DNA of 64,000 nucleotides, from positions 1,248,001-1,312,000 of the forward strand of contig CAXXVZ010000003.1 of NCBI GenBank assembly GCA_963678065.2, in the 5' to 3' direction. The notes under the pieces are model-generated. The model was not told the origin of the DNA and ran no database searches. It was given only the letters and a program-made list of their open reading frames with translations. Positions 33,355-50,945 of this stretch are shown here, one piece after another; the stretch's first letter is position 1, and each line of letters begins with the position of its first letter. A program made the position numbers and the translations under genes. Source of the DNA: Treponemataceae bacterium. Its GTDB lineage: Bacteria; Spirochaetota; Spirochaetia; Treponematales; Rectinemataceae.

Positions 33355-33583
33355 GTCGCGCGACCTCCGTCGGGAATACTGTAATGTGGAAGAAAGATTT
33401 GCTCAATCGACACGCTCGCGGCACGTTGCGAGGCATGATCCCGCCCGCGAATCGACACACTTTGCAGCGAGCCGCGGGGCATGGAACCCACTTCCACATC
33501 AAAATGCGATTGCGGCACAAAGCCGCCGGAGGTGGGATGCGGCGGGAGGTGGGGAAAGCCCCCTCCCGCCGACCGACTTGCGT

Positions 33584-34843: not shown

Positions 34844-35028
34844 GAAAGCTCCTCCGTATGCGGGGAATAGATTCGCGGCGTTTGCCGCGTTCTCTGCTAC
34901 CTACCTTACCCCCCATCCGCATATCCCAAAATAGGGTAAACATCGCATTCAGGGATAGGATATTTCACCTATGCGGTCGCGCAGATACACAGTGTACATG
35001 CATCACCCAGCGCACTATCCTCGTGCGT

Positions 35029-35865: not shown

Positions 35866-37134
35866 TTATGCCCGCGCAAAGAGGAGGGCCGCGCGGCGGC
35901 GGGCCTCCCCGAGAACTTCCTCCTCTCCCTCGATCCGCCCCTTCCGCATGAGGACGGCGCCTGCGCAGATCGTGGTGTCCACCGACGCGCCCGATCCTGC
36001 GTACACGAGATTGGAGGCCAGGTCGTGGCAGGGCGTCATGGCGGCCCGCCTGAGGTCGATGAGGAGGATGTCGGCCGTCGCTCCTGCCTCGATCCTGCCG
36101 CCGCCTGTCTCAAAGAGCTCGTGACCCCTCGTCGAGGCAGCGTCGAGGATCTCGTTCACGGGCAGACGCCGGGAGTCCCGATAGTGCTGTTTCTGGAGCA
36201 GTCCCGCGATCTTCATGTCCGAAAAGAGATCCAGCGAGTTGTTCGAGGCCGCCCCGTCCGTGCCGAGGAGGACGCGGATGCCTCTCTTCCTCGCCGCCTC
36301 ATAGTCGAAGGCGGGCCCCGAGGCGAGCTTCATGTTGGAGACAGGGTTGTGGGCCACCGTGACTCCCCGCGCGGCGAGGATGTCGAAGTCCCTTTCGTCC
36401 AGCCACAGACAATGCGCGGCGATGGTCCTGGGCCCAAGGGCTCCGAGGGAGTCGAGGTAGGCCGCGGGCGACAGCCCCGTCCTCTTGCGGCACTCCCTGT
36501 CCTCCTCCTCGGTCTCGGCGAGGTGGAGCTGGAGGAAAAGTCCGCGCTCGCGGGAGAGTTCTCCGAGGAACCGGAGGCTCTCGCTCGCGGTCGCGTAGAC
36601 CGAGTGCGCGGCGAGGCAGAAGCGCGACAGAGACCCGCAGTCGGGCCGGGCGTCGAGGAAAGACAGGCAGGCAGCCCGCTGCTCAGCCGCCCTCCCCTCG
36701 TCGAGCCCATCGATGAGCGCGTAGGAGAGGATGAAGCGCATCCCCGAATCGCGGGCCGCGCGCGCCTGGGCCTCAGGGTAGATATACATATCGCAGCAGA
36801 CCGTCGTGCCGCTCTTCGCCATCTCGAGCGCGGCGAGGCGCATACCCCAGTAAACGTCTTCCTCCGTCATCCGGGCCTCGCGGGGCCATACGGCCTCCCG
36901 CAGCCAGGGCAAAAGTTCCATATCCTCGGCCACGCCGCGCAGAAGGGTCATGGCGGAATGGGCGTGGGCGTTCACGAGCGAAGGGATGGCCGCCATTCCC
37001 CGGGCGTCGATGACCTCGAGCCCCCCGGGCAGAGAGTCCTCTATCCGCGGCTCCAGGCGGGTTATGCGGTCGCCTTCTATGAGAATATCGGCCTCTGCGC
37101 CGCCGATGAGCGCGCTCCGTATCAGGATGCCCAT
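35866..37134 (-). CDS. mtaD: Amidohydrolase, MTA/SAH/5'-deoxyadenosine deaminase-like
   Basis: NAHAHSAMTLLRG, DMY, LHLAET..E, AAHC, HNPVSNMKLASG, GTDGAASNNSLD. Confidence 0.78.
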   Translation of the reverse strand: MGILIRSALIGGAEADILIEGDRITRLEPRIEDSLPGGLEVIDARGMAAIPSLVNAHAHSAMTLLRGVAEDMELLPWLREAVWPREARMTEEDVYWGMRLAALEMAKSGTTVCCDMYIYPEAQARAARDSGMRFILSYALIDGLDEGRAAEQRAACLSFLDARPDCGSLSRFCLAAHSVYATASESLRFLGELSRERGLFLQLHLAETEEEDRECRKRTGLSPAAYLDSLGALGPRTIAAHCLWLDERDFDILAARGVTVAHNPVSNMKLASGPAFDYEAARKRGIRVLLGTDGAASNNSLDLFSDMKIAGLLQKQHYRDSRRLPVNEILDAASTRGHELFETGGGRIEAGATADILLIDLRRAAMTPCHDLASNLVYAGSGASVDTTICAGAVLMRKGRIEGEEEVLGEARRRAALLFARA

Positions 37135-37152: not shown

Positions 37153-37971
37153 CTACGAGGCGAGTTCGATTATCCGGCGAATGAGGGCAGAGAACTCGGG
37201 ACGGCGACGCGCCGAAATCTCGAGGACTTCCTCGCTCGTGATGGGCTGATCGAGCATTCCGGCGCCCATGTTCGTGATGCACGATATGCCGAGCGTCCTG
37301 AGTCCGCAGTGGACGGCGGCGATGGCTTCGGGCACCGTCGACATGCCGACGGCGTCCGCGCCCAGGATGCGTGCCATCCTGATTTCGGCGGGCGTTTCGA
37401 AGCTGGGGCCGAGGAACCACGCGTAAACGCCCTCCCGCAGGCCGATTCCCAGCTCATCTCCCGCTCGCCGGGCCAGGGCGCGGAGCGCGGGATCGTAAAC
37501 GCGGGACATGTCGGGGAAGCGGGGCCCGAGACTGTCGTCGTTCGGTCCGACGAGGGGATTCCTGCCCGCGAGGTTGACGTGATCGCGTATGATCATGAAA
37601 TCCCCGGGAGCGTAGTCGGAATTCACTCCTCCCGCCGCGTTCGTCAGAACGAGACACTTTACGCCGAGGAGCCGGAAGGTCCGCACGGGGAAGGTCACGC
37701 GATCGAGGGGATGCCCTTCGTAGCAGTGGAATCGTCCCTGCATCAGGAGGATTGGTTTCCCGGCGAGGCGGCCTGCCACGAGGCGGCCGGCATGTCCGGG
37801 CGCAGTCGACGCGGGAAAGCCGGGTATCGACGTGTAGGGTATGACGACGGGAGACTCGACCTCGTCGGCGAGGCCCCCGAGACCGGAGCCGAGAACGAGG
37901 GCCATGTCCGGCACCTCGCGTATTCTGGAGCGGATATAGTCGGCCGCCACCTGAATTTCTTCCTGAGACAT
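37153..37971 (-). CDS. punA: Purine-nucleoside phosphorylase (trimeric, inosine/guanosine type)
   Basis: LGSGLG, GHAG, QGRFHCYEG, TNAAGG, GPSFETPAE, VGMSTVPE, CITN. Confidence 0.9.
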   Translation of the reverse strand: MSQEEIQVAADYIRSRIREVPDMALVLGSGLGGLADEVESPVVIPYTSIPGFPASTAPGHAGRLVAGRLAGKPILLMQGRFHCYEGHPLDRVTFPVRTFRLLGVKCLVLTNAAGGVNSDYAPGDFMIIRDHVNLAGRNPLVGPNDDSLGPRFPDMSRVYDPALRALARRAGDELGIGLREGVYAWFLGPSFETPAEIRMARILGADAVGMSTVPEAIAAVHCGLRTLGISCITNMGAGMLDQPITSEEVLEISARRRPEFSALIRRIIELAS

Positions 37972-37985
37972 GTTCCCTCCGCAGT

Positions 37986-38026
37986 AAAAGCCGCCCCAAA
38001 GGCTTTTTTTTAGTCTTTGGGGCGGC
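37986..38026 (-). terminator. Hairpin or terminator between the BMP gene and PNP
   Basis: GCCGCCCCAAAG (37990-38001) and CTTTGGGGCGGC (38015-38026) form a perfect 12-bp inverted repeat, followed by TTTT on the minus strand. Confidence 0.6.
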
Positions 38027-38101
38027 GTGATTCGTGTCGCCCTGGGGCGCAGATCCGGGCGATGCCCAGCGCTGATGCCGCCGGACACCACCCGATGTGG
38101 G

Positions 38102-39133
38102 TCACTTCTTGATGCCGAGCTCGGCGAGAGTCGCGGGGACTTTCACTTTGCCGGAGGCGATGTCCGTTTTGGCCTTGGACACCGCGCTCTTCACGTCCGC
38201 CGGGACGATGCTGTCGTGCTGGTGGAAGGGAGCGATGTCGATCGCGCCTTCCGCGATGCCGAAGACGCGGTTCTGCCCGCCCTTGAGCTTCCCGTTGACG
38301 AGATCCTTGATCGCGAGATATGCCGACATGGTCGTACCTTTGAGGGCGGAGGTGAGAACGTAGGCCGGGGCCGCGGCGTTCTGATCGACGTCGGCGCCCA
38401 TCGCGAAGATCTTCCGCTCGCGGGCAGCGTCGATGACGCCCATGCCGGTGAGCCCGGCGATCTGGAGGACGATGTCCGCGCCCTGATCGATGAGGGCGAT
38501 CGTCGCTTCCTTGCCCTTGGCGGGGTCGCCGAAGGTGCCTGTCACGATGTAGCGCACATCGACGGTGGGATTGACCGATTTCGCGCCCGCGATAAAGCCG
38601 GCGAGGTAGCGCTCGACGGGGGGAATGTCCATGCCGAGCACGGCGCCGATCACGTTCTTGTCGTTGAGGAGGGGGGAATTCTTGTAGTATTTCTTCGTCA
38701 TGGAGCCCGCGACGATACCGGCAAGGTAGCCCGCCTCCTGCTCGCGCCAGCTGATACCGATGAGATTCGCGGGAATGTTGTCCCCGTAGGTGTGGTCGAT
38801 GCCGGCGTACATGGTCTGCGGATTGGCCTTGGCCGCTTCCTGGATCTGCTCCACCATGAGGAAACCTACACCGAACACCAGCTTGGCGCCGTCCTCGGCG
38901 AGGCCCGTGAGATTCGGGACATAGTCGGTCATGGCGTGGGCTTCGACGACCTTCACCTTCGCGAGGCCTTCGGCTTCGGCTTTCTTGAGACCGGCCCAGA
39001 CGCCATCGTTGAAGGAACCGTCGCCGAGGCCGTTGGCGTCGGTCGTCATAGCCACGAGTGGCTTGCCCTGGGCGCTTGCGGCTGTCGCGAAGACCGTGGC
39101 GATGATGAGCATCGCGATGAGAACTCTCTTCAT
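38102..39133 (-). CDS. BMP family nucleoside ABC transporter substrate-binding protein
   Basis: GLGDGSFND, GVGF, EQEAGYLAG, GADIV..AGLTGMG, GADVDQ, TSALK. Confidence 0.9.
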   Translation of the reverse strand: MKRVLIAMLIIATVFATAASAQGKPLVAMTTDANGLGDGSFNDGVWAGLKKAEAEGLAKVKVVEAHAMTDYVPNLTGLAEDGAKLVFGVGFLMVEQIQEAAKANPQTMYAGIDHTYGDNIPANLIGISWREQEAGYLAGIVAGSMTKKYYKNSPLLNDKNVIGAVLGMDIPPVERYLAGFIAGAKSVNPTVDVRYIVTGTFGDPAKGKEATIALIDQGADIVLQIAGLTGMGVIDAARERKIFAMGADVDQNAAAPAYVLTSALKGTTMSAYLAIKDLVNGKLKGGQNRVFGIAEGAIDIAPFHQHDSIVPADVKSAVSKAKTDIASGKVKVPATLAELGIKK

Positions 39134-39209
39134 TCTATGCCTCCTTGAACACTAAAAAATTCCCCCGTGGGGGATCTTGGCCGGTCTCCTACGAGCCGGC
39201 GCTGTCGCC

Positions 39210-40169
39210 TCATTCGCCCTCTCCCTCGACAGTGAAGTCCTTCCCTACGGCGGCTGGCGGCCTGGATTTCCGGACGAGGCCGGCCACCGCGATTATCGTC
39301 ATGACGTAGGGGAAAACCAGGAATATCTCGGAGGGAAGTTTCAGGATTCCGATGCTCTGAGCGCGCAGCTGGAGCGCGTCGACGAAACCGAAGAACAGCG
39401 AAGCGAGGAATGCGCCCACAGGGCGCCAGCCTCCGGCGATGTTGGCGGCGAGAGCTATGAAACCGCGGCCGTCCGTCATGCCTTCGGTGAAGGAATTCGA
39501 GTTTTCTATCGAGAGGAAGGCGCCGGCGATGCCACACAGAAGGCCGGAGAAGGCGAGAGCCACGTAGCGCACGCGCACGACGGAACGGCCGAGTGTTTCG
39601 AGCGCCATGGGATGCTCGCCTGAGGCCTCCATGGAGAGGCCGAGGCGGGTCCTCTTGAATATCCAATACCAGACGAAGACAGAGAGCAGCGCGATGTACA
39701 CGATGGGTGTCTGGTTGAAAAACGCGGGCCCGATGAAAGGTATGTCCGAGAGCAAGGGGATGGCGAATTTAAAATCATGGAGGGTGCGCGCGACCGCGTT
39801 CGAGGTGCCTTGCCGCCCGAAGACTACCATCATGAGGTAGCGCGTGAGGCCGAAGGCGAGAATGTTCATGATGGCGCCGGCGACAACGTGGTTTATGTGA
39901 AGGGAGATGGCGGCCCAGGCGAAGAACAGGGAGAAGAGAAGACCTGCGGCCATGCCGGCCGCGAGACCGATCCAGGGGTTGCCCGTCGCCCAGCCCGCCC
40001 AGGCGGCGAAGAAGGCGCCGACGAGCATGACACCCTCCATGGCGATATTCGTGATCCCGCTTCTCTCGCAGATCACGGCTGCGAGGGCGGCGAGGGTCAC
40101 CGGCGTCGCCAGCCGCACCGTGGCCTCGAGGAGTTGGGGCGTAAAAAGAGCGATCAAGAGTCCTGTCAT
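39210..40169 (-). CDS. Nucleoside ABC transporter permease (NupC/NupQ-like)
   Basis: ERSGITNIAMEG, GEHP, GRGFIALAA, FPYVMT. Confidence 0.88.
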   Translation of the reverse strand: MTGLLIALFTPQLLEATVRLATPVTLAALAAVICERSGITNIAMEGVMLVGAFFAAWAGWATGNPWIGLAAGMAAGLLFSLFFAWAAISLHINHVVAGAIMNILAFGLTRYLMMVVFGRQGTSNAVARTLHDFKFAIPLLSDIPFIGPAFFNQTPIVYIALLSVFVWYWIFKRTRLGLSMEASGEHPMALETLGRSVVRVRYVALAFSGLLCGIAGAFLSIENSNSFTEGMTDGRGFIALAANIAGGWRPVGAFLASLFFGFVDALQLRAQSIGILKLPSEIFLVFPYVMTIIAVAGLVRKSRPPAAVGKDFTVEGEGE

Positions 40170-41392
40170 GCCTTGGCTCCTTTCCGGCCGCGGAAGAGGC
40201 GTTCGTAGATCGTCTCGGCGAGCATGAGAAAGAGGATGGTGCCTTTGACAATCTCTATGATCGCGTTGGGCGTCTGAACCGTCCTCGCCATGTATTGGCC
40301 GCCCGAATCGAGAACGCCCCAGAGCAGCGCGGTGAAAATGATGGCTATGGGATCGTTCCTCGCGAGCAGCGCGATGGAAATGCCGTTCCAGCCGTAGCCG
40401 GCGTTGAGGTTCTGGAACATGCGGTGATCGAGACCGAGCACCTGTGTCACTCCCGAAAGCGCCGCGAGCGACCCCGATATGAGGAGGCTCGCCGCGGTTA
40501 TCCACGGAACAAAGATGCCCTGGGTGCGCGCGGCTGCGGGGTTGGCGCCCACCGCGCGCACCTTGAAGCCCAGGTCCGTCTTCTCGAGGATGAAGCGTAC
40601 GAGAAAGCAGGTGGCGATGGCGATGAGGATGCCGATGTGGAGGCGGTAGTTGGCGTTGGGGAGAAAATCCTTGAAAAGGGGGAGGAAAAAGGTCTCCCTG
40701 ATGGGGTCCGTCGTGTAGGGATGGGTGGTGAGAGCAGGATCGCCGCCGTTCGCCCTGATGAACATCGACGAGAGGGTGCGTGTGGCGTAGGCGAACATCA
40801 TCGTCGTGATCACTTCGTGCGCGCCCGTCTTGACCTTGAGTATCGCGGGGATGGCGTTGAGGGCCGCGCCGAAAAGGGCGCCCGCGACGAAGACGAGGGG
40901 TATGGCGACAAGGGGCGGCAGGTTGAGGTTGAGACCGAGCCAGGTCGCGACCATGACGCCAATGTAGTATTGCCCCTCGGCGCCGATGTTGAAGAGGCCT
41001 CCCTTGAACGCGAAGGCGATCGCGAGGCCGGTGAAGATGAGCGGCGTCGCGTTGAGGATGGCGATGTGCCAGTTTTTTACGAGGCCGCCGTAGAAGAGAG
41101 CCTTGTAGGACGCGATGGGGTCGAAGCCCGTGAAGGCCATGATGGCGGCGCCGATGATGAGGGCCGAGCATATGCCAGCGACGGGGATCGCCGCGCGGAC
41201 GAGGATGCGGCGCGCCGCGCGCCCGGTCTCGACCGCTCCGAGGGCGGCAAACCTTTCGATGCATACCAGAATCAGAGCAGCCGCGATGAGCCACAGCCCC
41301 CGGAAATACGAGGCCAGGTACAGAATCGCCCCCGCGACACCGAGGAGCGCCGCGAAAACACCCAGCAGCCGTCTGGGAAGTGGCATTTTCAC
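40166..41392 (-). CDS. Nucleoside ABC transporter permease (NupB/NupP-like)
   Basis: GGLFNIGAEGQ, HEVITTMM, GYGWNGISIALLA. Confidence 0.88.
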   Translation of the reverse strand: MKMPLPRRLLGVFAALLGVAGAILYLASYFRGLWLIAAALILVCIERFAALGAVETGRAARRILVRAAIPVAGICSALIIGAAIMAFTGFDPIASYKALFYGGLVKNWHIAILNATPLIFTGLAIAFAFKGGLFNIGAEGQYYIGVMVATWLGLNLNLPPLVAIPLVFVAGALFGAALNAIPAILKVKTGAHEVITTMMFAYATRTLSSMFIRANGGDPALTTHPYTTDPIRETFFLPLFKDFLPNANYRLHIGILIAIATCFLVRFILEKTDLGFKVRAVGANPAAARTQGIFVPWITAASLLISGSLAALSGVTQVLGLDHRMFQNLNAGYGWNGISIALLARNDPIAIIFTALLWGVLDSGGQYMARTVQTPNAIIEIVKGTILFLMLAETIYERLFRGRKGAKA

Positions 41393-42933
41393 GATGCGCT
41401 CCTTTCCGCCTTGCCGCGTATCATGTACTCGCCGACTTCCACTACGCTCGTGCGGGAGATGGCGCTCTCGAAGACGATCTCGCCTCCGTGGAGGACTGCG
41501 ACGCGGTCGGAGAGGGTGAAGATTTCCTCGAGTTCCATAGAGACGAGCAGAATGGCCGCGTTCCGCTCTTTGAGTTCGAGTATGCGTCGGTAGACGTACT
41601 CGATGGCTCCGACGTCGAGGCCCCGCGTCGGCTGAGATATGAGGAGGAAGGCGGGATCGCGCGAGAACTCCCGCGCGAGGATGACTTTCTGCTGATTCCC
41701 GCCCGAAAGCGTCGACGCGTGGGCCTCCGGTCCGGCCGCCCTGATGTCGTAGCCCTCCATGAGCCGCCCGGCCTGGGCCCGCATGGCCACAAAATCGAGA
41801 AAACCGCCGCGGCAGAGCGGCGGACGGTCGCTCCGTCCGAGCGCGAGGTTCTCCTCCACCGAGAAGGACAGGACGAGCCCTGAACCGCGGCGGTCCTGGG
41901 GCACATAACCCATGCCTTCGTCCATACGCCGCCTGACATCCCAGCGGGAAACATCCCTGCCCTTGAAAAGGACGCGCCCCGAATCAGGCGCCCGCAGACC
42001 GACGAGGGCCTCGCAGAGCTCGCTCTGGCCGTTGCCTTCGACGCCAGCGATGCCCAGTATCTCTCCGGGGCCGACGCCGAGGCTCGCCGCCTTGAGTGCG
42101 GAAAGGCCGCGGGAATTCCTCACGGAGAGCCTTTCGACGCGCAGGATCGGCTCCGGCGTCGGCTTGGCCGCGGGCCGCTCGACATCCAGGACGACCTCCC
42201 GGCCCACCATGAGCTTCGCGAGCTCGGCTGAGCTCGCCTCCGCCGTGCGGCGCTCGCCCTTCAGCTCGCCCTTGCGCAGAATGTAGACCCGCCCGGAAAG
42301 GTGCCGGACTTCCTCGAGTTTGTGCGTGATGATTATGATCGAGGTCCCATCCGCGGCGAGGCGCCGGAGGACGGCGAACAGCTCTTCCACCTCGCGCGGC
42401 GTGAGAACCGCCGTCGGCTCGTCGAGTATGAGAACCCGCGCCGAGCGGTAGAGCGCCTTGAGTATCTCGACGCGCTGCTGGAGTCCCACGGAAAGATCCT
42501 CGAGGCGGGCGTCGGGGTCCACGGCGAGGCCGTAGCGGTCGGAGAGCTCGACGACTCTCTGTCTGGCCCTCTTGTAGAGTACATGTCCGAGGCGGACAGG
42601 CTCGTCGCCGAGAATTATGTTCTGGGTGACGCTGAGCGTGGGGACGAGCATGAAATGCTGGTGCACCATGCCCAGCCCCCTGGATATGGCGTCCCGGGGC
42701 GAGGAGAAGCTCACGGGCTTTCCGTCGAGCAGTATCTCGCCGGAAGTCGGCTTGTAGAGGCCGAAGAGTATGTTCATGAGCGTGGTCTTGCCCGCGCCGT
42801 TCTCGCCGAGGAAGGCGATGATCTCTCCAGGGTAGAGTTTCACGGATATGTCGCGGTTCGCGACCACCCTCGAGAATGCTTTCGTGATATTGCGTGTCTC
42901 AAGGACAGGCGATATCCCTGCCTGCGTCCTCAT
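41389..42933 (-). CDS. Nucleoside ABC transporter ATP-binding protein
   Basis: GENGAGKTT, MVHQHFMLV, DEPTAVLTP, LSGGNQQK, QPTRGLD. Confidence 0.92.
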   Translation of the reverse strand: MRTQAGISPVLETRNITKAFSRVVANRDISVKLYPGEIIAFLGENGAGKTTLMNILFGLYKPTSGEILLDGKPVSFSSPRDAISRGLGMVHQHFMLVPTLSVTQNIILGDEPVRLGHVLYKRARQRVVELSDRYGLAVDPDARLEDLSVGLQQRVEILKALYRSARVLILDEPTAVLTPREVEELFAVLRRLAADGTSIIIITHKLEEVRHLSGRVYILRKGELKGERRTAEASSAELAKLMVGREVVLDVERPAAKPTPEPILRVERLSVRNSRGLSALKAASLGVGPGEILGIAGVEGNGQSELCEALVGLRAPDSGRVLFKGRDVSRWDVRRRMDEGMGYVPQDRRGSGLVLSFSVEENLALGRSDRPPLCRGGFLDFVAMRAQAGRLMEGYDIRAAGPEAHASTLSGGNQQKVILAREFSRDPAFLLISQPTRGLDVGAIEYVYRRILELKERNAAILLVSMELEEIFTLSDRVAVLHGGEIVFESAISRTSVVEVGEYMIRGKAERSAS

Positions 42934-42936
42934 CCC

Positions 42937-43998
42937 TCAGCTCCCGGCCAGCGTCGAGAGGGCGGGGCCGAAGGGCGGATAGGCTACGCCGCGTTCGGTG
43001 ACGATGGCGGTTATGAGGTCGGCGTCAGTGACGTCGAAGGCGGGGTTGCAGACCTTCACGCCAGCAGGAGCCATGCGCCGCGCATACCATTTTTCGGTGA
43101 CTTCCTCGGCCGGCCTCTGTTCGATGCGGATATTTTCGCCCGAAGCGCAGCCGAAGTCGATCGTCGAAAAGGGCGCGTGGATGTAAAAAGGAATCCCGTA
43201 GTGCCGCGCGAGGATAGCCACCCCCGAGGTGCCTATCTTGTTCGCGGCGTCCCCGTTCGCGGCCACGCGGTCGCAGCCGACGAGAACTGCCTGGACGAGG
43301 CCGCTCTTCATGACGATCGAGGCCATGTTGTCGCAGATGAGCGTCACGTCGATTCCCGCCTGCATGAGCTCCCAGGCAGTCAGGCGCGCGCCTTGGAGGA
43401 GGGGGCGCGTCTCGTCGGCGTAGACCTTGAAGCCGTAACCCCGCTCGGCGCCGAGGTATATCGGGGCGAGGGCCGTACCATAGCGCGCGGTCGCGATCGC
43501 CCCCGCGTTGCAGTGCGTGAGGAGCCCCCATCCTCTTCCAAGGAGGGTGAGCGAGTTTTCGCCTATTCGTCGGCAGGTCTCTTCGTCGTCGTCCCTGATC
43601 GCCTCGGCCTCGAGCATCAAGGCTTTCTTCGCTGCGTCCGGGCTCTCGCCCTCCAGGCAAAGAAGTTTCGCCTCCATCCTGTCGAGAGCCCAGAAGAGGT
43701 TGACCGCCGTCGGCCGCGAAGAGGCGAGGTAGGCCTTGGCCGCGCGGAACTCCGCGAGGAGAGAGGCGAAGTCGCCCGCGGGAAAGTCGCGGACAGCGAG
43801 ATAGACGCCGTATGCCGCGGCTATGCCTATGGCGGGTGCGCCCCTCACTTTCAGTTCGTATATGGCCTCCCATATTTCCCTCTGGGTCTTGAGCCTGAGG
43901 AACGCGACTTCGTTCGGCAGGAGGGTCTGGTCGAGGATCACGAGAGATCCGTCGTCATCGTCGAGCCTCACCGGCTCCGGGCCTTTGATTTCACTCAT
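42937..43998 (-). CDS. mtnA: S-methyl-5-thioribose-1-phosphate isomerase (also 5-deoxyribose-1-P isomerase family)
   Basis: LDQTLLP, VRGAPAIG, SRPTAVNL, LTHCNAG, DETRPLLQGARLTAWEL, ANKIGT, NPAFDVT. Confidence 0.93.
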   Translation of the reverse strand: MSEIKGPEPVRLDDDDGSLVILDQTLLPNEVAFLRLKTQREIWEAIYELKVRGAPAIGIAAAYGVYLAVRDFPAGDFASLLAEFRAAKAYLASSRPTAVNLFWALDRMEAKLLCLEGESPDAAKKALMLEAEAIRDDDEETCRRIGENSLTLLGRGWGLLTHCNAGAIATARYGTALAPIYLGAERGYGFKVYADETRPLLQGARLTAWELMQAGIDVTLICDNMASIVMKSGLVQAVLVGCDRVAANGDAANKIGTSGVAILARHYGIPFYIHAPFSTIDFGCASGENIRIEQRPAEEVTEKWYARRMAPAGVKVCNPAFDVTDADLITAIVTERGVAYPPFGPALSTLAGS

Positions 43999-44978
43999 CG
44001 CGCGTACCTCTCATTCGTGCCGCCAGCCAGCGGCCCTTCTTTTTCATCCGGCACCCCGAGCAGAGCCTCCGCGGTCGGGCGATCGGTGACCAGACCGTTG
44101 ATCACGCCGCCGCGCAGGGCGCCGAGAATGGTGGCCAGCTTCCCCGGCCCGAAGGCCATGGCGATCACGTGCGGCAATCGCCGTATACTCTCCCACTCGA
44201 GGGAGACCGTCCGGTCGGCGAAGGACATGGGCACATACCTTCCCGCAGCGTCGTAATACCGCATGAGGATGTCGCCCACAGCTCCCTTCGCATTGAGCTC
44301 CTCGAGCTGTTCGGCGCCGATGTAGCCCGTCTTCATGATACTCGAATCCCGGGTGACGCCGCCAAGCCCGACGAAGGCCAGATCGACTTTCGCCGCGTTT
44401 TCGAGCGCCCTTCCTATGGCGGGTTCCTTGATCATCATCTCCTTGACCCGCCCGCTCCGCACGAGGACGGGCATGGGGATGCTCTCGATCGGCACGCCCA
44501 GCTTCTCCGCGAGTGGAGATGATAAGCCATACGGGGTGCTGGGCTCCAGGTAGGTCCCCGCCAACTCATTGATGCGGGAGGGAAGCGAGGCCGGGCGTCT
44601 CACAAAGGGAAGCATCGCGCTCACCGTGGTGCTCCAGGCCACTCCGATCCTGCAACCCGGCGTTATGAGACGCCCAAGAAGCTCGGCGCCCCCCATGCCC
44701 ACGGCTTCCCTGCTCTCCTCCAACGTAGCGCCAGTGGAGACGACGATCGCGGTCTTGAGCCCATAGCGCTGCTCAAGCCGGAGGCCGAGCGCGAAGAGTT
44801 CCGGAAGCGGTTTCTTGACCGTTATCTGTACAAGTCCCTCCTCGCGGGCCCTCTTGAGCATCCTCGTCACGGCGACGCGGGAGAGTCCCATCTTCGCGGC
44901 GACCTCCTCCTGGCTTAAGCCCTCGATGTAATACAGATTCGCGATCACCGTGAGAGCCTCATCCGCGTATCCGCCCAT
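43995..44978 (-). CDS. SorC/DeoR family sugar-phosphate-binding transcriptional regulator
   Basis: LYYIEGLSQEEVA..MGLSRVAVTRML..AREEGLVQI HTH; GAVGDI, GLVTD. Confidence 0.88.
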   Translation of the reverse strand: MGGYADEALTVIANLYYIEGLSQEEVAAKMGLSRVAVTRMLKRAREEGLVQITVKKPLPELFALGLRLEQRYGLKTAIVVSTGATLEESREAVGMGGAELLGRLITPGCRIGVAWSTTVSAMLPFVRRPASLPSRINELAGTYLEPSTPYGLSSPLAEKLGVPIESIPMPVLVRSGRVKEMMIKEPAIGRALENAAKVDLAFVGLGGVTRDSSIMKTGYIGAEQLEELNAKGAVGDILMRYYDAAGRYVPMSFADRTVSLEWESIRRLPHVIAMAFGPGKLATILGALRGGVINGLVTDRPTAEALLGVPDEKEGPLAGGTNERYAR

Positions 44979-44989
44979 TCCGCCACCTC

Positions 44990-46135
44990 TCACAAAGATT
45001 CGAGCAAAGCGAGGAAATGCCTGGCGTTTTCCGCGAGGTCCGCGCTCCGGCGATGGAGTCCGCCACCGATAAGGAGGATGAAGTCCTTTCCGTAGACATC
45101 GAGCATCTCCCTGGCGCGGTCTGTCGTCATGCCCCCGCCCGGCGCGGGGAAAATGGGCTTGATATCTCCCATCGCCTCTCGTGAGGCCCGGGCGATGCCG
45201 AGGCACTCCTCGCGGGTGAAGGCGAAACGCCCGCCGAAATTCGGATACACAGTGGCGTCGGCTCCCGCAAGCCGCATGAGGCCGCCGTAGAGCGCGGCGT
45301 GGCTGAAGCCGCTCTCCGGGGAAGTCACGAACGAGCCTCCGAACGAGGGGTGCGCCATGATGGGCAGCCCGACTGAGTCGTCGTCGGCGATGAGGCGCAT
45401 CGCGTCGAAACCGACGAGGGCCGGGCAAATAAGGAGAGCCCCCGCCCCGAGTTCTCTGGCCCGCCGCGCAGAGGGCAGGAGCCTGTCCGCCCTCGCGGTG
45501 ATGTTGGGCATGTAGACGCTTCTCCGTCCGGTCTCGCGGTTCGCCCTCTCCACAGCCTCGACGCAGCGCGCGACCCTCTCCTCGAAGGGACAGAAGACCT
45601 GGTCGGCGATGCCGTGGTCGTCCTTGATGAGGTCGATGCCCCCGAGGGCGAATCGGTATGCCTGGTCGGCCAGCTCCGCGGGGGACAAGCCCATGGGCTT
45701 GAGCGCGGTGCACAGGAGGGGGCGGGAGTCCTGGCCGAGGAGGGCCCGAAGGCCGGACCGGCCGAAGCGGGGTCCGCGGAACCGGCGGAGGATGGATTCG
45801 GGGAGCGTCATACGCTCGACCTTGATGCCCGGCTTTATGCTGATGTTCCCGTAGACAACATTGAGAAGCTGAACGAGGTCCGGCCCGGCGACCTCCGCGG
45901 CGAAGCTGATCCTCGCGCGGTAAAGGCCCGGTCGGGAAGGCTCGAGGAGCTCGACCTTCCCGACTATTCCGTCTCTGATGGGGCCCTCCGGCACGAGATC
46001 CGCCGGAAACTCGACCGTCTGCTCCAGACAGATATCCTCCGCTTTGGCCCGGGCCTCGGCCTCGTCGCCTGCAAGGAGATAGGTGACGGCGAAGCGCTCC
46101 CCCCCGAGAATTCCGGACAGATGATCGCCCGCCAT
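44990..46135 (-). CDS. RuBisCO-like protein (form IV), Rhodospirillum rubrum / deep-YkrW type (MTRu-1-P 1,3-isomerase-like)
   Basis: EQTVE, YGNISI, ALKPMGLS, GGIDLIKDDHGIADQ, AHPS, GADATVYPNFGGRF, PAPGGG, LIGGGL. KDDH replaces the KDDE of carboxylating RuBisCO. Confidence 0.88.
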   Translation of the reverse strand: MAGDHLSGILGGERFAVTYLLAGDEAEARAKAEDICLEQTVEFPADLVPEGPIRDGIVGKVELLEPSRPGLYRARISFAAEVAGPDLVQLLNVVYGNISIKPGIKVERMTLPESILRRFRGPRFGRSGLRALLGQDSRPLLCTALKPMGLSPAELADQAYRFALGGIDLIKDDHGIADQVFCPFEERVARCVEAVERANRETGRRSVYMPNITARADRLLPSARRARELGAGALLICPALVGFDAMRLIADDDSVGLPIMAHPSFGGSFVTSPESGFSHAALYGGLMRLAGADATVYPNFGGRFAFTREECLGIARASREAMGDIKPIFPAPGGGMTTDRAREMLDVYGKDFILLIGGGLHRRSADLAENARHFLALLESL

Positions 46136-47142
46136 CAGAGGGCCTCGGCTTTGGCCGCGCTGTGGACCGCCTCGATGCGCTGGGCCGCGAGTTCCGAATC
46201 GTCGATGCCGAAGCTCATGCCGGTCAGACTCTCGACCTTCGAGACGAGAGCCGAGGCGTCGAGTCCGTATTCTCTCATCAAATACCCCTTGGAGCCGCCG
46301 TGGGCGAAGCTGTCCTGTAGGCCCATGCGGATAAGGCGCTTTCCGATGCCCTTTTCCGCGATAATCTCGGCCACTTCGGCGCCGAGACCGCCTATGACGC
46401 TGTGATTCTCCATTGTAATGACACCGTAGCGCGGCTTGCACAGAGCCTCCTCGAGGGCCGCGTCGCCGGAGGGCTTGTGCGTCGACACATGGAGGTGCTG
46501 GATCGAGAGGCCCCTTCTGCGCAGCGAGGCGGTGGCGCGCATCGCCTCCTCGGTGGAAATACCCGCCGTGACGATGCTGATGTCGGAGCCGACGGACAGA
46601 ACCCGCGACTTTCCCGCGACGAAGGGCTCTTCCCGGGGGAAGAGCCGGGGGAGCTCGCCGCGCAGCATGCGGATGTAGACCGGCCCTTGCGCATCGAGAA
46701 CGGGATCGAGGACGGTCTCGACCTCGGTGGCGTCTCCCACCTCGAAGACTGTCATGTTCGGAACCGCGCGCATGACGGCGATGTCCTCGATAGCCTGATG
46801 GGTCGCCCCCCCGGGAGTGGTTATCCCTGGAAGAAAGCCGAAAAACTTGACGGGCAGATTGGAATAGGCCACCGAGCTCACGATCTGATTGAGCGCCTGC
46901 CGGTAGATGAAAACCGCGAATGTGTGGATGAGCGGTATGAAGCCCTCGCGGGCGAGCCCCGCCGCGAAACTCACCATGTTCTGCTCGGCGATGCCCATGG
47001 AGAAAAAACGCTCCGGATAGGCTTCCTTGAACTCGGCTATCTCGGTGGAGCCCGTCAAGTCCGCGGAGAGCACGACGACGCGCGGCTTGTCCGCGGCCCA
47101 CGAGACGAGATTCCGCGCGTGCACCTTGCTGAGGATTTCCAC
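46135..47142 (-). CDS. Transketolase-like ThDP enzyme, C-terminal (pyrimidine-binding) subunit
   Basis: SADL..S, FSMGIAEQNM, FAVF..R, GGATHQAIED, GPVYIR, ENHSVIGGLG. Confidence 0.88.
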   Translation of the reverse strand: MEILSKVHARNLVSWAADKPRVVVLSADLTGSTEIAEFKEAYPERFFSMGIAEQNMVSFAAGLAREGFIPLIHTFAVFIYRQALNQIVSSVAYSNLPVKFFGFLPGITTPGGATHQAIEDIAVMRAVPNMTVFEVGDATEVETVLDPVLDAQGPVYIRMLRGELPRLFPREEPFVAGKSRVLSVGSDISIVTAGISTEEAMRATASLRRRGLSIQHLHVSTHKPSGDAALEEALCKPRYGVITMENHSVIGGLGAEVAEIIAEKGIGKRLIRMGLQDSFAHGGSKGYLMREYGLDASALVSKVESLTGMSFGIDDSELAAQRIEAVHSAAKAEAL

Positions 47143-47145
47143 GGT

Positions 47146-48093
47146 CTACTCCTTTTCCGCGCGGCGCTTCATCTCCGCCTCGTAAAACTTCGCATACTCC
47201 TTTCGCTCCCCGGACGAGGCGAAACGAAGGTAATGGAACTTGGGCCGGCGCGCGTCGAGGATGCCAAGGCCCCGACATGGGTCCGTGCGGCAGAGGACGA
47301 AGGTGGGCCTGCCATCGGGCTTTCGGCCGCAGGCGGCGTCGATGGCGAAGGGATCGTGCCCGTCCACGACAGAGGCGTGCGCGCCGAAGGATTCGATTCG
47401 CGCATCGAGGGGCTCGATCCCCATGACGTCCTTCATCTCGCCGTCGCACTGCTGACCGTTCACGTCGACGCAGACGATCATGTTGTCGAGTTTATAGAAG
47501 GACATCGTCTGAATGGCCTCCCATGTCTGCCCCTCCTGGAATTCGCCGTCGGAGAGGAAAACGACTACCCTACCCCTCTCGCGCTTCAGTTTTTTGGCGA
47601 GGGCTATCCCCGCAGCCTGGCTCAAGGTCTGCGCGAGAGCCCCGCCCATCATCTCGAAACCGGGAGAATGCTCGGCGCCTATCATCTCGACCGTGCTGCC
47701 GTCTTTATTGAACTGGGCGAGTCCCTCGGGAGCCATCCTGCCCGTCTCAACGAGGGTGGCGTAGAGAACGAGGGCGTAGTGGGCCGGACTCAGGAAGAAG
47801 CGGTCATCGTCCGCCTTTCCGGGGCCATTGTAGCCCGCACCTGAGAGGGACCGGCCGCGTCCCTTGCCTGGCACAGCGCTGAAAGGCGACGGAACCAGGG
47901 GAGCGATGCTTGGCCCCAGGCGCATGACCTTCAGATAGAGAGTGGAAAGGATCTCCGCCGCGGAGCAAGCCTGGCTCATGTAGCCACCGTCGTTGGCGAG
48001 CGTGTGCTCCAGCACTCGCAGCCTGATTCCGCGCGCGGCGCGCGAGACATCGTCGATCCATCCGCTGGAGGGCGCGCCCCCGGGAACTGCCAT
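47146..48093 (-). CDS. Transketolase-like ThDP enzyme, N-terminal (diphosphate-binding) subunit, divergent
   Basis: DRFFLSPAHYA, SDGEFQEGQTWEA...DVNGQQCDG ThDP motif, VDGHD. Confidence 0.85.
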   Translation of the reverse strand: MAVPGGAPSSGWIDDVSRAARGIRLRVLEHTLANDGGYMSQACSAAEILSTLYLKVMRLGPSIAPLVPSPFSAVPGKGRGRSLSGAGYNGPGKADDDRFFLSPAHYALVLYATLVETGRMAPEGLAQFNKDGSTVEMIGAEHSPGFEMMGGALAQTLSQAAGIALAKKLKRERGRVVVFLSDGEFQEGQTWEAIQTMSFYKLDNMIVCVDVNGQQCDGEMKDVMGIEPLDARIESFGAHASVVDGHDPFAIDAACGRKPDGRPTFVLCRTDPCRGLGILDARRPKFHYLRFASSGERKEYAKFYEAEMKRRAEKE

Positions 48094-48173: not shown

Positions 48174-48228
48174 ACTATATGACGGGATCGAAAATCTGTC
48201 AAATTGTTTATCACGGAACTTTTGTTCA
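48174..48228 (-). promoter_or_regulatory. Sigma70 promoter of the transketolase-RLP operon with an upstream GAAC-N4-GTTC palindrome
   Basis: Minus strand TTGACA (48197-48202)-N17-TATAGT (48174-48179); GAACTTTTGTTC at 48216-48227. Confidence 0.65.
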
Positions 48229-48879
48229 GTTCAGTCCGAGCACGATCCCGCAGACCGCCTCCACGGAGCAGCCCCACGCGATTATGCCGCCCCGATGTCC
48301 GGCCATACAGATCGCGCCCTCTTCGGGGCGGCCGTTCTCGACGAATATGCGCCGTATCTCCCCGGCCATGGCAGGCGTCCCGTACGCGACATTTTCGCGC
48401 GTGCGCCTTTGCGCGTCCGGCCAGCCCGACCAGAGAGCTTCGCTGTGCACATGCAGGACAGCGAGGATTTCCGTCGACAACTCATAGAACGCTGCGTGCG
48501 TCAGACTCTCCGAAGAAGCCCGGCAAAGGCCGGCGCAATCCAGTCGGTTCCCCCGGATATCCCAGTCGGAGACATATGAATACGCTTCGGGCCCCGGATC
48601 GATCAAATGCCCTGTCTGGCTCCCCGTGATCAGGAAACCCTCGTGATCCGGCCCATCGGCCTCCCCGCAGCCCGGTATGCACATCCGCTTGCTGAGATTC
48701 CCGTAACCGATGCCGTCCGGCCCGATGCCGATGAGCCCGCGACTCCACATCGCCCTGCGGACGGGGCGCAACTCCGCTATCATCTCTTCGGAGACGCATT
48801 CCTGCCTTCTCCAGACACACTCGAACTTGATGACCCCTTCGTTCGCGTTCCTCGCGGGGTCAGCGTAATCGGGCATCAT
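48226..48879 (-). CDS. Class II aldolase/adducin family protein
   Basis: GNLS.R, FLITGS, SSESLTH, VLHVHS, YGTP, GH; GGAGG RBS. Confidence 0.78.
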   Translation of the reverse strand: MMPDYADPARNANEGVIKFECVWRRQECVSEEMIAELRPVRRAMWSRGLIGIGPDGIGYGNLSKRMCIPGCGEADGPDHEGFLITGSQTGHLIDPGPEAYSYVSDWDIRGNRLDCAGLCRASSESLTHAAFYELSTEILAVLHVHSEALWSGWPDAQRRTRENVAYGTPAMAGEIRRIFVENGRPEEGAICMAGHRGGIIAWGCSVEAVCGIVLGLN

Positions 48880-49007
48880 CCCTCCACTGAACGTATGTTC
48901 ATTTGACAACATTAGAACACCATTTCATGATAACGGTCAATCCAGGGAAAAACACGATGGGCGATACTCTCGTCGTCCCACACACTATCCCCGGAAACGG
49001 AGGATTC

Positions 49008-50291
49008 ATGTTCAAGAAACAGCTTCCCATCGCCAAAGCGCTTGCCCTCATCATCTTCATCGGGTTCATCGCGCTGCCGGCCATGCAGGCCCAGGAAATG
49101 CCCCGGGTGGATCAGTCCATCGAGGCGATCCGTTCCGAGGAGTACGGGGCCTTCATCAACGAGGAATTCGGTGTCGCCTTCAAGCCGATCGTCGGAAAGG
49201 AGGACTTCCTCGCCGCCATCGCGATCTCGACCGGCGCCGCGGTCGGTTCGCTCGAGCCCGCCACGACAGCAGACGGGCCCTTCGACTCTCTGGCCGCTGT
49301 CTCCATCGCGCTCAAGGCCGCGAATATGAAGGAGCTCGCCTACAGCTATCCTGCGGAGAAAGTCGGGAAAAACCTCGCCCGCGCAGGGTTCGGCTCCCTG
49401 GGGCTCGACGCCCGCTCTGCGCAGGAGCTCGCCGCCGCCGTCGACACGGGACTGATTCCACCCGCGCTCTACGCCACATTCGATCCCAAGGCCGCACCGG
49501 GCGCGGACCTGGCGAACAGCCTCGTGGGCGGAGTCCTCTCCGCGAGAGGTCTCTACAAGCACTATATCGGCTTTGTGCGCGAGATCGACATCTACGCAAA
49601 GGTAAGCGACGCATTCAGGCGCTCCAGCATCATAAAAGCGCCGGAGCTTCGCGCCATCGTCGATTCGGCCCTCAGGCAGAACCTCGTGACGGGCTACAAC
49701 CTCAAAGATTCCCGCTACGACCCGCATTTCATCGACGCGCTGACCCTCACCTACGGACACTCGGACCTCGCACACGCGATCCAGCTCCTCGGACTCCTCA
49801 AGAGCGAGAGCATCGACGCCAAGGTTCAGCTCGAACCGAAGACCTCCGCCTTCGTCTTCATGAAGGAATGGGGCGATCCGGGTCCGTCGAACGAGGACTA
49901 CGAGGTTGTCCGGATCGAGAACGGCAACTATATCGAATACGCCAGGGAATACGACATATCTTTCGAGTTCAGGATGGTACAGGACAAAGAGCGCTTCCAA
50001 CCCCTCATCTACGCCTACGCGAAGAAGAACCAGAAGAATCAGGCCGGCCTGCTGATTCAATCCTGGTGGCAGCCGCTCTATCATTCCATGACGACCATGG
50101 ACGGCTACCTCGTAATCACGAACCAGCTCATCGCCAAAGGGCCCTACTACGCGCAGTCCTTCTCGCTCAACGAGCAATCGGCCGCGATAATTCAAGGCTT
50201 CAAGTCGATCGACCCGAGTCTGGCCGTCAAAACCTATCAGTTCTGGGTGGACGAGCCGTTCTTCCGCTATCTTCAGGGAATGGCAAAGTAG
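49008..50291 (+). CDS. Hypothetical exported protein
   Basis: 427-aa ORF with GGAGG RBS, host-like codon usage and a signal peptide ending MQAQ; upstream TTGACA-N17-CATGAT. Confidence 0.75.
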   Translation: MFKKQLPIAKALALIIFIGFIALPAMQAQEMPRVDQSIEAIRSEEYGAFINEEFGVAFKPIVGKEDFLAAIAISTGAAVGSLEPATTADGPFDSLAAVSIALKAANMKELAYSYPAEKVGKNLARAGFGSLGLDARSAQELAAAVDTGLIPPALYATFDPKAAPGADLANSLVGGVLSARGLYKHYIGFVREIDIYAKVSDAFRRSSIIKAPELRAIVDSALRQNLVTGYNLKDSRYDPHFIDALTLTYGHSDLAHAIQLLGLLKSESIDAKVQLEPKTSAFVFMKEWGDPGPSNEDYEVVRIENGNYIEYAREYDISFEFRMVQDKERFQPLIYAYAKKNQKNQAGLLIQSWWQPLYHSMTTMDGYLVITNQLIAKGPYYAQSFSLNEQSAAIIQGFKSIDPSLAVKTYQFWVDEPFFRYLQGMAK

Positions 50292-50438: not shown

Positions 50439-50945
50439 TTACCTCTCCGGAGCCTTGACCAGCCCGAGACCTTGCCGCACTGCACCGAGGTGCCAGGCCC
50501 CATGGGCTACGAGACCGAGAAGACCCGTCATGAATTCGGCATCGTCCCAGGACTTCTCGGAGGCGATGACTTTCCTGAAGGCCTCGTATTCTGCCCTGAG
50601 TCCCGACAGGAGAGCCTTCCATTCCGATTCGTTCACCGTCCTCGTGTCCCAGCTTCGCGCCCAGTTCGCGTCCGCGTAGGGATTCTCGCCCTTCGCGGCG
50701 CGGTTGGCGAGTTCGAGGGTGAAGCGGACGTGATTCGCGTGCGAAGCGGCGCTGATCGGGTCGCCCGCGCAAAGCGGCGCGCTCGCCCTGGCGGCGTCGA
50801 TGCCCTCGAGTGTTCCGAGAAGACCGCTGCGCGGATCATTGTCGGTGAACCAGGTACTCGTCGTCGCCGGCCCGACATGGGCCTCGTCGAAAAGGGCCAG
50901 AGCCGCATCGGCCACTACACGCTTCTCGATCGTCGTTCCACTCAT
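50439..50945 (-). CDS. DinB/YfiT family protein
   Basis: SAASHANH...W...HGAWHLGAVRQ His pattern; AGGAGG RBS. Confidence 0.7.
   Translation of the reverse strand: MSGTTIEKRVVADAALALFDEAHVGPATTSTWFTDNDPRSGLLGTLEGIDAARASAPLCAGDPISAASHANHVRFTLELANRAAKGENPYADANWARSWDTRTVNESEWKALLSGLRAEYEAFRKVIASEKSWDDAEFMTGLLGLVAHGAWHLGAVRQGLGLVKAPER

Follow-up and report, generated by a model that had tools for sequence, protein, structure and literature searches.

The stretch of DNA analysed here, called the window, comprises 64,000 nt from a Treponemataceae bacterium (assembly GCA_963678065.2, contig CAXXVZ010000003.1, positions 1,248,001 to 1,312,000). On its minus strand, two adjacent genes encode a remodelled split transketolase, and a third encodes a RuBisCO-like protein (RLP). 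The first gene, tkN (47146..48093), specifies the subunit with the thiamine diphosphate (ThDP)-binding PP domain (315 aa), and the second, tkC (46135..47142), the subunit with the pyrimidine-binding and C-terminal domains (335 aa); both were assigned from their open reading frames (ORFs) and Pfam. The RLP gene (44990..46135) encodes a form IV, DeepYkr-like protein of 381 aa that is recognized by Pfam RuBisCO_large. tkC starts with a GTG 3 nt past the tkN stop, with AGGAG upstream, and its TGA stop overlaps the ATG start of the RLP gene by 1 nt. These junctions point to co-expression of the row of genes on this strand.

Residue pattern of the transketolase-like pair

Pfam assigns tkN to Transketolase_N (PF00456; 72.2 bits, cut-off 22) and tkC to Transket_pyr (PF02779; 113.8 bits, cut-off 27) and Transketolase_C (PF02780; 57.9 bits, cut-off 25.9). 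The cofactor set of the superfamily is in place, namely the GDG...N motif, H66, H261, and E411 (numbering of E. coli TktA), with Ser for the first Gly of the motif in 78/80 orthologues. The equivalog models for canonical transketolase (EC 2.2.1.1) remain below their cut-offs for the two subunits, with 154 bits (tkN) and 218 bits (tkC) against 488 for NF004559 and 63 and 46 bits against 682 for TIGR00232. All NCBIfam models for 1-deoxyxylulose-5-phosphate synthase (DXS) fall below cut-off as well; TIGR00204 gives 19 bits for tkN and 172 bits for tkC against 466.

For residue assignments, we aligned the pair with TktA from the K-12 record, on which the textbook residue numbers were checked at named residues, with the full-length transketolase of the same genome, and with its 11 other split pairs. 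HMMER alignments to the split transketolase 6YAK/6YAJ gave the same residue correspondences. Conservation was counted in the best 80 (55–70% identity) of 349 relatives from a scan of species-representative genomes. These 80, from metagenome-assembled genomes (MAGs) and isolates, are labelled Spirochaetota (Spirochaetia), Chloroflexota (Anaerolineae), Myxococcota, Acidobacteriota, Planctomycetota, Bacillota, and purple sulfur bacteria (Chromatiaceae), among others. Cultured strains with such a locus include Alkalispirochaeta alkalica DSM 8900 (L023) and Thiocystis minor DSM 178 (L088).

H26 of TktA, a binder of the C3/C4 hydroxyls, corresponds to Y38 in the tkN motif GGYMSQACS. Tyr occupies this position in 80/80 orthologues, and positions 28 and 29 are Ser and Gln in 80/80 each. 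In E. coli transketolase, H26Y reverses the stereoselectivity at C3 (88% enantiomeric excess R; excerpt of PMC3657141). By analogy, an enzyme with Tyr here may also take the ribulo (3R) epimer of a substrate.

H100 and P101 are replaced by M137 and I138 in the tkN motif VEMIGAEHSPG, which also carries a one-residue deletion. In the family, H100 is Met or Leu (80/80) and P101 is Ile (80/80). H66, H100, G114, and H473 are the donor-binding residues of transketolase, and the Geobacillus variants H100F and H100L reach a tenth and a third, respectively, of DXS activity on pyruvate (excerpt of PMC7661550). In a second engineering study, replacing His102 by Leu shifts the preference towards a hydrophobic alkyl chain, and H462I creates a hydrophobic niche (excerpt of PMC11997939). 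In the window's pair, the binder of the donor C1 hydroxyl is not kept, while its partner H473 is (76/76). By analogy with these variants, a CH2-S-CH3 or CH3 group suits a C1 pocket with the hydrophobic M/L-I pair.

G154 is Ser in the tkN motif SDGE (S181; 78/80). The following residues D182 (D155) and G183 (G156) are kept, as is N212 (N185), each in 80/80. In the family, I187 is mostly Gln (75/80) and I189 mostly Cys (73/80; C216 in tkN). H105, the equivalent of H66, is His in 80/80, and H287 corresponds to H261. H105, D182, G183, N212, and H287 are invariant in 62 aligned sequences, including seven canonical paralogues.

H461, E468, and D469 fall into the tkC motif FLPGITTPGGATHQ, in which F103 or L104 aligns with H461, P110 with E468, and G111 with D469, followed by H115 at H473. 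In the 76 tkC sequences counted, these positions are Phe (76/76), Pro (73/76), Gly (76/76), and His (76/76). D469 is the second binder of the C3/C4 hydroxyls, and its variants in E. coli transketolase take aliphatic, non-hydroxylated aldehydes (excerpt of PMC3657141). The remaining active-site residues of tkC are retained: D28 (D381), S32 (S385; 75/76), E53 (E411; 76/76), R161 (R520; 76/76), and the equivalents of F434 and F437. The equivalent of R358 is alignment-dependent, being S5 in the TktA alignment and K6 in the family alignment; as the latter has Lys or Arg in 75/76, we regard R358 as effectively kept. Of the phosphate binders, positions 358, 385, and 520 are hence kept, and H461 is Phe/Leu.

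In addition, tkN contains a conserved 27-residue insertion (residues ~61–88) after the H26 helix, that is, after the first helix pair. An AlphaFold2 model of tkN built on the 62-sequence alignment reached a predicted local distance difference test score (pLDDT) of 91.1 and a predicted template-modelling score (pTM) of 0.91, and the insertion is mostly ordered in it (block-mean pLDDT 94, 68, and 86). By whole-chain scores, the best fold match is the alpha chain of 6YAK (6yak_A; TMt 0.85), followed by human transketolase.

Within the genome, the full-length transketolase and all 11 other split N-subunits keep H26 and H100. The 11 paralogous C-subunits also vary at 461, 468, and 469; therefore, only the changes in the N-subunit are unique in this genome. 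Beside the one full-length transketolase, the genome has 12 split pairs in sugar loci, and the wide variety of the C-subunits at H461/E468/D469 suggests, from sequence, many sugar-specific transketolases.

An initial annotation had read four motif replacements from the letters of tkN and tkC, and all four are present in the translations and hold in the alignments. What it stated on the transketolase residues also agrees with the literature (excerpt of PMC7661550). It had further described the canonical substrate-binding residues as lost. H26, H100, and D469 are indeed replaced, and H461 can be added; H100, however, may have moved rather than vanished, as (M/L)IGAEHSPG is nearly invariant in the family, including its His (H142 in tkN). 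The pair keeps the cofactor and core catalytic residues, and four substrate-binding residues are replaced. In the aligned sequences, the residues that hold ThDP and the metal and those that activate the cofactor are untouched, and contacts made only to the sugar appear to have been replaced and then frozen. By domains and cofactor motifs, the pair is thus placed in the transketolase superfamily, and it fails the transketolase and DXS equivalogs and three contacts of EC 2.2.1.1.

The closest characterized enzyme is the split transketolase of Carboxydothermus hydrogenoformans (ChTK; 6YAK/6YAJ), which is the best match by sequence (131 and 216 bits) and by fold and has the same ThDP and metal ligands. 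It differs at the substrate side: ChTK has His at H26 (alignment), His at H100 (excerpt of PMC7661550), and His, Glu, and Asp at H461, E468, and D469, where the window's pair has Tyr, Met, Phe/Leu, Pro, and Gly and the 27-residue insertion besides. ChTK is a bona fide transketolase acting on hydroxypyruvate and aldehydes (excerpt of PMC7661550).

DXS belongs to the same superfamily, has a hydrophobic residue at H100, which is always Phe (excerpt of PMC7661550), and handles glyceraldehyde-3-phosphate (G3P) and a C2 unit lacking the C1 hydroxyl. Unlike the two-gene pair, it is a single chain with the active site inside the monomer (excerpt of PMC7661550). Alignment with the DXS of E. coli and of the same genome confirmed that there is no conserved His at H100 and that DXS keeps H49 (H26) and D427 (D469), where tkN and tkC have Tyr and Gly. 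We considered convergence of the pair on DXS and rejected it, as only the H100 position agrees.

The substituted positions are also those chosen by enzyme engineers in G. stearothermophilus H102L/(L118I)/H474S, E. coli H26Y, and the D469 variants (excerpts of PMC11997939, PMC7661550, and PMC3657141), with the aims of non-hydroxylated donors (H100), reversed C3 stereochemistry (H26Y), and non-alpha-hydroxylated aldehydes (D469). The natural family differs from these variants in that H473 is kept, all changes occur at once, and the insertion and the motifs YLSQACS, AEHSPG, and NGQQCDG are present. Judged by its residues, it is a natural combination of the changes that engineers used to leave 1-hydroxylated, D-threo donors.

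Some relatives depart from the two-gene form or from the motifs. P0001 (661 aa) is a single-chain N+C form with a Lys/Pro-rich linker, whose cluster holds a protein of a Nitrospirota MAG; its equivalent of H66 is Gln (SPAQYA), where the 80 loci all have His. A divergent actinobacterial subgroup (L135, L137, L140, L141, and L142–L145) has the motifs GFGY and EAIG and lacks the AEHS His and the insertion. Its neighbours are a 3-hydroxyisobutyrate-dehydrogenase-like gene, an enoyl-CoA hydratase, and a branched-chain-type ATP-binding cassette (ABC) importer.

Coupling to the RuBisCO-like protein and to probable methylthioadenosine salvage

The RLP is the sole RuBisCO-family gene of the genome. Its best solved relative is 3QFW (281 bits), which we take to be the R. 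palustris DeepYkr RLP, against 184–189 bits for the enolase-type RLPs of Bacillus and Geobacillus (2zvi, 2oek, and 2oej). The MtnW models score 237 and 198 bits, below their cut-offs of 409 and 514.

Linkage between the pair and this RLP is seen from both sides. Among the 80 loci centred on tkN, tkC follows in 76–79, and the RLP is present in 65 (phmmer) to 71 (clustering); the next commonest neighbours are an ABC ATPase (24–25) and MtnA (20). In a search centred on the RLP, 24 of 401 genomes sampled from the same phylum matched, the own genome included. Outside the own genome, each of the 11 close RLP orthologues (45–61% identity) has tkC directly upstream, and tkN was in view in eight; of the 13 distant RLP-like genes in this sample, none has tkC upstream.

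The RLP and the transketolase parts also occur on one chain. Among 1.84 billion representative proteins, 89 matched at E ≤ 1e-30, with P0001 and fragments of RLP-transketolase fusions among the top ones. P0153 (1130 aa), which stems from transcriptome data for the diatom Conticribra weissflogii (MMETSP/EukProt), combines RuBisCO_large, Transketolase_N, Transket_pyr, and Transketolase_C, and its RLP part is 44% identical to the RLP of the window. The partial fusion chains P0002, P0006, and P0007, which are metagenome fragments, retain GGYLSQACS, ELIGAEHSPG, SDGEFQEGQTWE, and N(G/K)QQCDG; P0006 and P0007, which extend far enough into the C domain, also retain FLPG(L/I)(TT/IS)PGG.THQ. The RLP comes first in P0153, whereas the bacterial order is tkN-tkC-RLP. 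One locus (L138, genome G955, from the phylum sampled around L041, labelled Nitriliruptoraceae) has the order RLP-tkN-tkC, as in the diatom fusion.

A different partner is known for RLPs of this broad type: in Rhodospirillum rubrum, a cupin turns the RLP product 1-methylthioxylulose-5-phosphate (MTXu-5-P) into methanethiol plus 1-deoxyxylulose-5-phosphate (DXP) (excerpt of PMC4958253). We compared the two partners in 401 genomes from the class of G401, which holds L089, a locus labelled as an alphaproteobacterial MAG. Eighteen of these genomes carry an RLP of this type at E ≤ 1e-60. In 16 of the 18 (38–44% identity to the window's RLP), a cupin ORF abuts downstream, with 188–354 bits to the cupin of L128, and Pfam Cupin_2 was confirmed on two representatives. 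The other two (46–47% identity) have tkN-tkC upstream and no cupin, and both partners together were found in none. A tblastn search of the own genome with the cupin found no homologue, and the 80 tkN loci yielded only one weak cupin match, ~7 kb away. In these samples, the transketolase-like pair and the cupin are thus, as far as gene order tells, alternative partners of one RLP lineage. No other observation speaks as strongly for an action of the pair on the RLP product as this alternation.

Downstream of the RLP gene, the minus-strand row encodes a candidate route from nucleosides to the RLP. A SorC/DeoR-type sugar-phosphate-binding transcription regulator (43995..44960, start approximate; Pfam Sugar-bind 194 bits and HTH; NCBIfam DeoR 176 bits and LsrR 133 bits, both below cut-off) is followed by MtnA, the S-methyl-5-thioribose-1-phosphate isomerase (42937..43998; TIGR00512 419 bits, cut-off 279). 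Next comes a nucleoside-type ABC importer of the BMP/PnrA type (38102..42933; Pfam Bmp, PnrA-like, 197 bits), with an ATPase (41389–42933) and permeases (40166–41392 and ~39210–40170), all named by reading the translations, and a binding protein (38102–39133). A PunA-type purine-nucleoside phosphorylase (PNP; 37153..38091; NF006054 387 bits, cut-off 218) and, as the last gene of the row, an MtaD-like amidohydrolase complete it (35866..37134; Pfam Amidohydro_1 184 bits). The latter belongs to the TRZ/ATZ enzymes that include the deaminases of 5'-deoxyadenosine and methylthioadenosine (MTA); its best NCBIfam scores of 381, 264 (5'-deoxyadenosine deaminase), and 208 bits (MTA/S-adenosylhomocysteine deaminase) are all below cut-off.

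The genome is 99.94% complete and has one MtnA, the one in the operon. Other salvage enzymes were searched for in it: MtnB reaches at best 44 bits (cut-off 137), acireductone dioxygenase (ARD) and MtnK give no match at all, MtnN gives none above the curated cut-off, and the only match to MTAP/MtnP is the operon PNP, with 75.6 bits against 274.85. Two O-acetylhomoserine sulfhydrylases are present. In the 80 loci, MtnK occurs in 14 (a representative scored 445 bits, above cut-off), a methionine-gamma-lyase-family pyridoxal-phosphate enzyme in six, and an MtaD-like gene and a PNP in four each. Five loci labelled Anaerolineales, Anaerolinea, or Anaerolineae (L018, L045, L053, L056, and L060) have the order MtnA, LsrF-like thiolase, two short-chain dehydrogenase/reductase (SDR) genes, tkN, and tkC, and the RLP comes after tkC where the contig continues. 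A representative of the LsrF-like thiolase (L012) scored 484 bits, above cut-off.

Proposed reaction and alternative explanations

Any cell using S-adenosylmethionine produces MTA and 5'-deoxyadenosine. The anaerobic routes known to us for these compounds are the RLP/cupin shunt and the dihydroxyacetone phosphate (DHAP) shunt, which cover only some organisms. In the route that we propose, MTA, imported or made internally, and probably 5'-deoxyadenosine too, would be deaminated by the MtaD-like enzyme to the inosine form. The PNP would phosphorolyse this product to a pentose-1-phosphate, MtnA would isomerize it to 5-methylthioribulose-1-phosphate, and the RLP would convert the latter to 1-methylthio-xylulose/ribulose-5-phosphate. 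The remodelled transketolase would act next, its ThDP attacking C2 and breaking the C2–C3 bond to free G3P.

We lean, with some caution, towards the reading that the pair is a two-subunit ThDP enzyme that cleaves the 1-methylthio-pentulose-5-phosphate of the adjacent RLP to G3P and a ThDP-bound C2 fragment. Beside the observed residue pattern, conservation, and genetic coupling, it is the substrate, read from the neighbouring genes, the cleavage, and the fate of the C2 fragment that we infer. The attack on C2 of the RLP product with release of G3P, taken by itself, is moderately probable, and DXP is perhaps a further substrate. In the pocket, the M/L-I pair at H100/P101 would line the space for CH2-S-CH3 (or CH3) instead of CH2OH. 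C2–C3 cleavage of the xylulo or the ribulo epimer leads to the same D-glyceraldehyde-3-phosphate. The R. rubrum RLP forms both, xylulo and ribulo in a ratio of 3:1 (excerpt of PMC6302742).

The initial annotation had proposed that the enzyme is tuned for 1-deoxy- or 1-methylthio-xylulose-5-phosphate, the expected RLP product. The order tkN-tkC-RLP, the 1-nt overlap, the exclusion of the cupin, and the RLP-transketolase fusion all fit this. The changes H26Y, D469G, and H461F/L, however, exceed what tuning of the C1 pocket would involve, and H26Y points equally to the ribulo (3R) epimer.

For the C2 fragment, we favour a continuation in which the bound enamine would beta-eliminate methanethiol to give acetyl-ThDP, which would leave as acetyl phosphate or acetate; the methanethiol would return to methionine through O-acetylhomoserine sulfhydrylase. 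Chemical precedents exist. In phosphoketolase, the C2 enamine loses water, and in sulfoacetaldehyde acetyltransferase it loses sulfite; both arrive at acetyl-ThDP and acetyl phosphate. We prefer elimination because of these precedents, because sulfhydrylases are present, and because the pair replaces an enzyme that frees methanethiol. The likeness to the two families would be chemical only, and neither is among the Pfam and NCBIfam matches listed at E ≤ 0.001. In its fullest and clearly more doubtful form, the pair would be a methylthio-ketolase that takes both C3 epimers of 1-methylthio-pentulose-5-phosphate, yields G3P, and expels methanethiol, so that the C2 fragment leaves as acetyl phosphate or acetate. 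With the RLP as its partner, it would provide an oxygen-independent, carbon-complete, and possibly ATP-yielding salvage of methionine sulfur, which would replace the cupin branch in many phyla and be fused in diatoms.

The nearest known pathway is the MTA-isoprenoid shunt of R. rubrum, which consists of MtnP, MtnA, the DeepYkr RLP, and the cupin (excerpt of PMC4958253). MtnA, an RLP of broadly the same type, and independence of oxygen are shared, and the O-acetylhomoserine sulfhydrylases are present in the window's genome. The route of the window differs in that it has the transketolase-like pair beside the RLP in place of a cupin, enters through the MtaD-like deaminase and PunA-type PNP instead of MtnP, and is predicted to yield G3P and a C2 unit instead of DXP. 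A full-text literature search, with supplements and key older RLP papers outside its reach, found no description of an RLP-linked transketolase-type enzyme in MTA or 5-deoxyribose metabolism.

The pair is thus an uncharacterised RLP partner that is spread over many phyla. If the proposed reaction is right, it would fill a pathway hole in genomes such as this one, where MtnA and the RLP are present but the cupin, ARD, and an MtnB above cut-off are missing, and methanethiol would have a further source in anoxic and marine environments. Biocatalysis would also gain a natural transketolase scaffold pre-adapted to the non-hydroxylated donors for which engineers evolved the enzyme by hand.

Several observations weigh against the proposed reaction. 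The equivalents of H26 and D469 are both lost, though a DXS-like binding of G3P should keep them, and the loss of H461 is likewise unexplained by it. H142 of AEHSPG, which lies four to five residues after the H100 position beside the deletion, might restore an H100-like contact to C1. The RLPs linked to the transketolase (45–61% identity) are, by sequence, set apart from the cupin-linked ones (38–44%), and since the two sets are distinct, the former may make another product than the R. rubrum RLP does. In five loci, the LsrF-like thiolase and SDR genes that stand in line with MtnA-tkN-tkC hint at extra or alternative steps; there, oxidation and thiolysis of a 1-substituted pentulose-5-phosphate would be chemically possible. 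The divergent actinobacterial subgroup, in which H26 is Tyr and H100 is not His, lacks the link to an RLP in 4/4 genomes examined: no RLP, MtnA, or MtnK lies within the 5–9 kb fetched on either side. This subgroup rules out Tyr at H26 without His at H100 as an exclusive mark of RLP partners. Finally, we found no sequence feature that separates elimination to acetyl-ThDP from release of methylthioacetaldehyde or transfer to an acceptor.

The best-placed alternative is one that we rate as unlikely though not negligible. The enzyme would act as a lyase or transferase that keeps the sulfur bound: it would release G3P and free 2-methylthioacetaldehyde (acetaldehyde from DXP), to be reduced later as in the DHAP shunt, or pass the C2 unit to an aldehyde acceptor. 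The evidence for coupling to the RLP serves this alternative equally. SDR genes in 9/80 loci and Zn-alcohol-dehydrogenase genes in 5/80 would suit a reduction step, and the pair retains H473 and H66, the residues by which transketolase holds its dihydroxyethyl intermediate. If the C2 unit went to a sugar acceptor, however, a dead-end 1-methylthio-ketose would result. The DHAP shunt uses a one-enzyme aldolase route from the same precursor, and since that route is already known, a two-enzyme detour to the aldehyde would gain little. Nor would the enzyme itself recover methanethiol, despite occupying the slot of the cupin that releases it (excerpt of PMC4958253).

It is improbable that the pair works in synthesis, as DXS does, or upstream of the RLP, joining a non-hydroxylated C2 donor (from pyruvate or a methylthio-keto acid) to a triose or other aldehyde to supply the RLP with a ketose phosphate for isomerization. 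A hydrophobic residue at H100 is the state of natural DXS and of engineered, pyruvate-using transketolase (excerpts of PMC7661550 and PMC11997939), and tkC scores 172 bits on the NCBIfam dxs model. Against this, the pair has lost the residues that match H26 and D469 in DXS, a separate DXS-like ORF is present in the genome, and the alternative partner, the cupin, acts after the RLP. Moreover, no synthetic step is needed, because the operon already supplies the RLP substrate through PNP and MtnA.

Slightly less probable still is an ordinary sugar-phosphate transketolase paralogue for an imported pentose or hexose, in which the changes would be neutral drift or compensated by H142 and the linkage to the RLP would reflect shared regulation. 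The 12 split pairs in sugar loci, the variation of C-subunits at 461/468/469, and the near-invariance of H142 would agree with it. Drift is at odds with H26Y and H100M/L being fixed in 80/80 orthologues across phyla and absent from 11 paralogues, and shared regulation with the RLP linkage in 11/11 RLP-centred cases and in the fusion protein. As the genome has a normal full-length transketolase (766 bits), the pair is not needed for the pentose-phosphate pathway. A non-catalytic, regulatory RLP partner, for which the four missing active-site residues could speak, is very improbable given the invariant ThDP and metal ligands, activating Glu, and H473, the 55–70% identity maintained across phyla, and the confident tkN model.

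Transcription unit and flanking genes

In the 132-nt gap upstream of tkN lies a sigma-70-like promoter match, TTGACA-17-TATAGT (48174..48202, minus strand), which suggests that tkN starts the transcription unit. The site matches 11/12 and is one of two in the 13.7 kb scanned, against 1.9 in shuffles, so that the count alone is without significance. Two lake-water metatranscriptome runs contain contigs of ~150–210 nt that are 90–100% alike to the RLP gene, tkC, and tkN; this cover is fragmentary and contig-based and may include DNA, and one reported joint rests on 24-nt matches.

Beyond the promoter gap, a minus-strand gene (48226–48912) encodes a class-II-aldolase-like protein of 228 aa (Pfam Aldolase_II, E 2.5e-7). 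Searches for homologues stayed empty in the 80 loci even at E ≤ 10 and in the rest of the genome at E ≤ 1e-3, and by sequence the protein has no solved relative. We considered it as an MtnB that would form a diketone route together with an enolase-type RLP, or as the aldolase of a DHAP shunt. Because it has no homologues in the loci and a promoter-like site separates it from tkN, we left it outside the conserved module. By eye, the protein retains SSE...H, HVH, and GH, which could be a metal-binding and catalytic set. A second ORF of the class-II aldolase family, at ~5646–5885 on the plus strand of the window, is the sub-threshold best MtnB match of the genome (44 bits) and could, going by its family, be a DHAP-shunt-type aldolase.

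Pfam gave nothing at E ≤ 1e-5 for three further sizeable ORFs, at 48903–50291 (plus strand, 462 aa), 50439–50945 (minus, 168 aa), and 33351–34943 (minus, 530 aa), and for the last of them NCBIfam gave no match at E ≤ 1e-10 either. Inside the operon, a terminator-like hairpin followed by a T run (39162–39174, minus strand) lies between the genes for the second permease and the BMP binding protein. From its position, it could attenuate transcription or set the ratio of binding protein to transporter.

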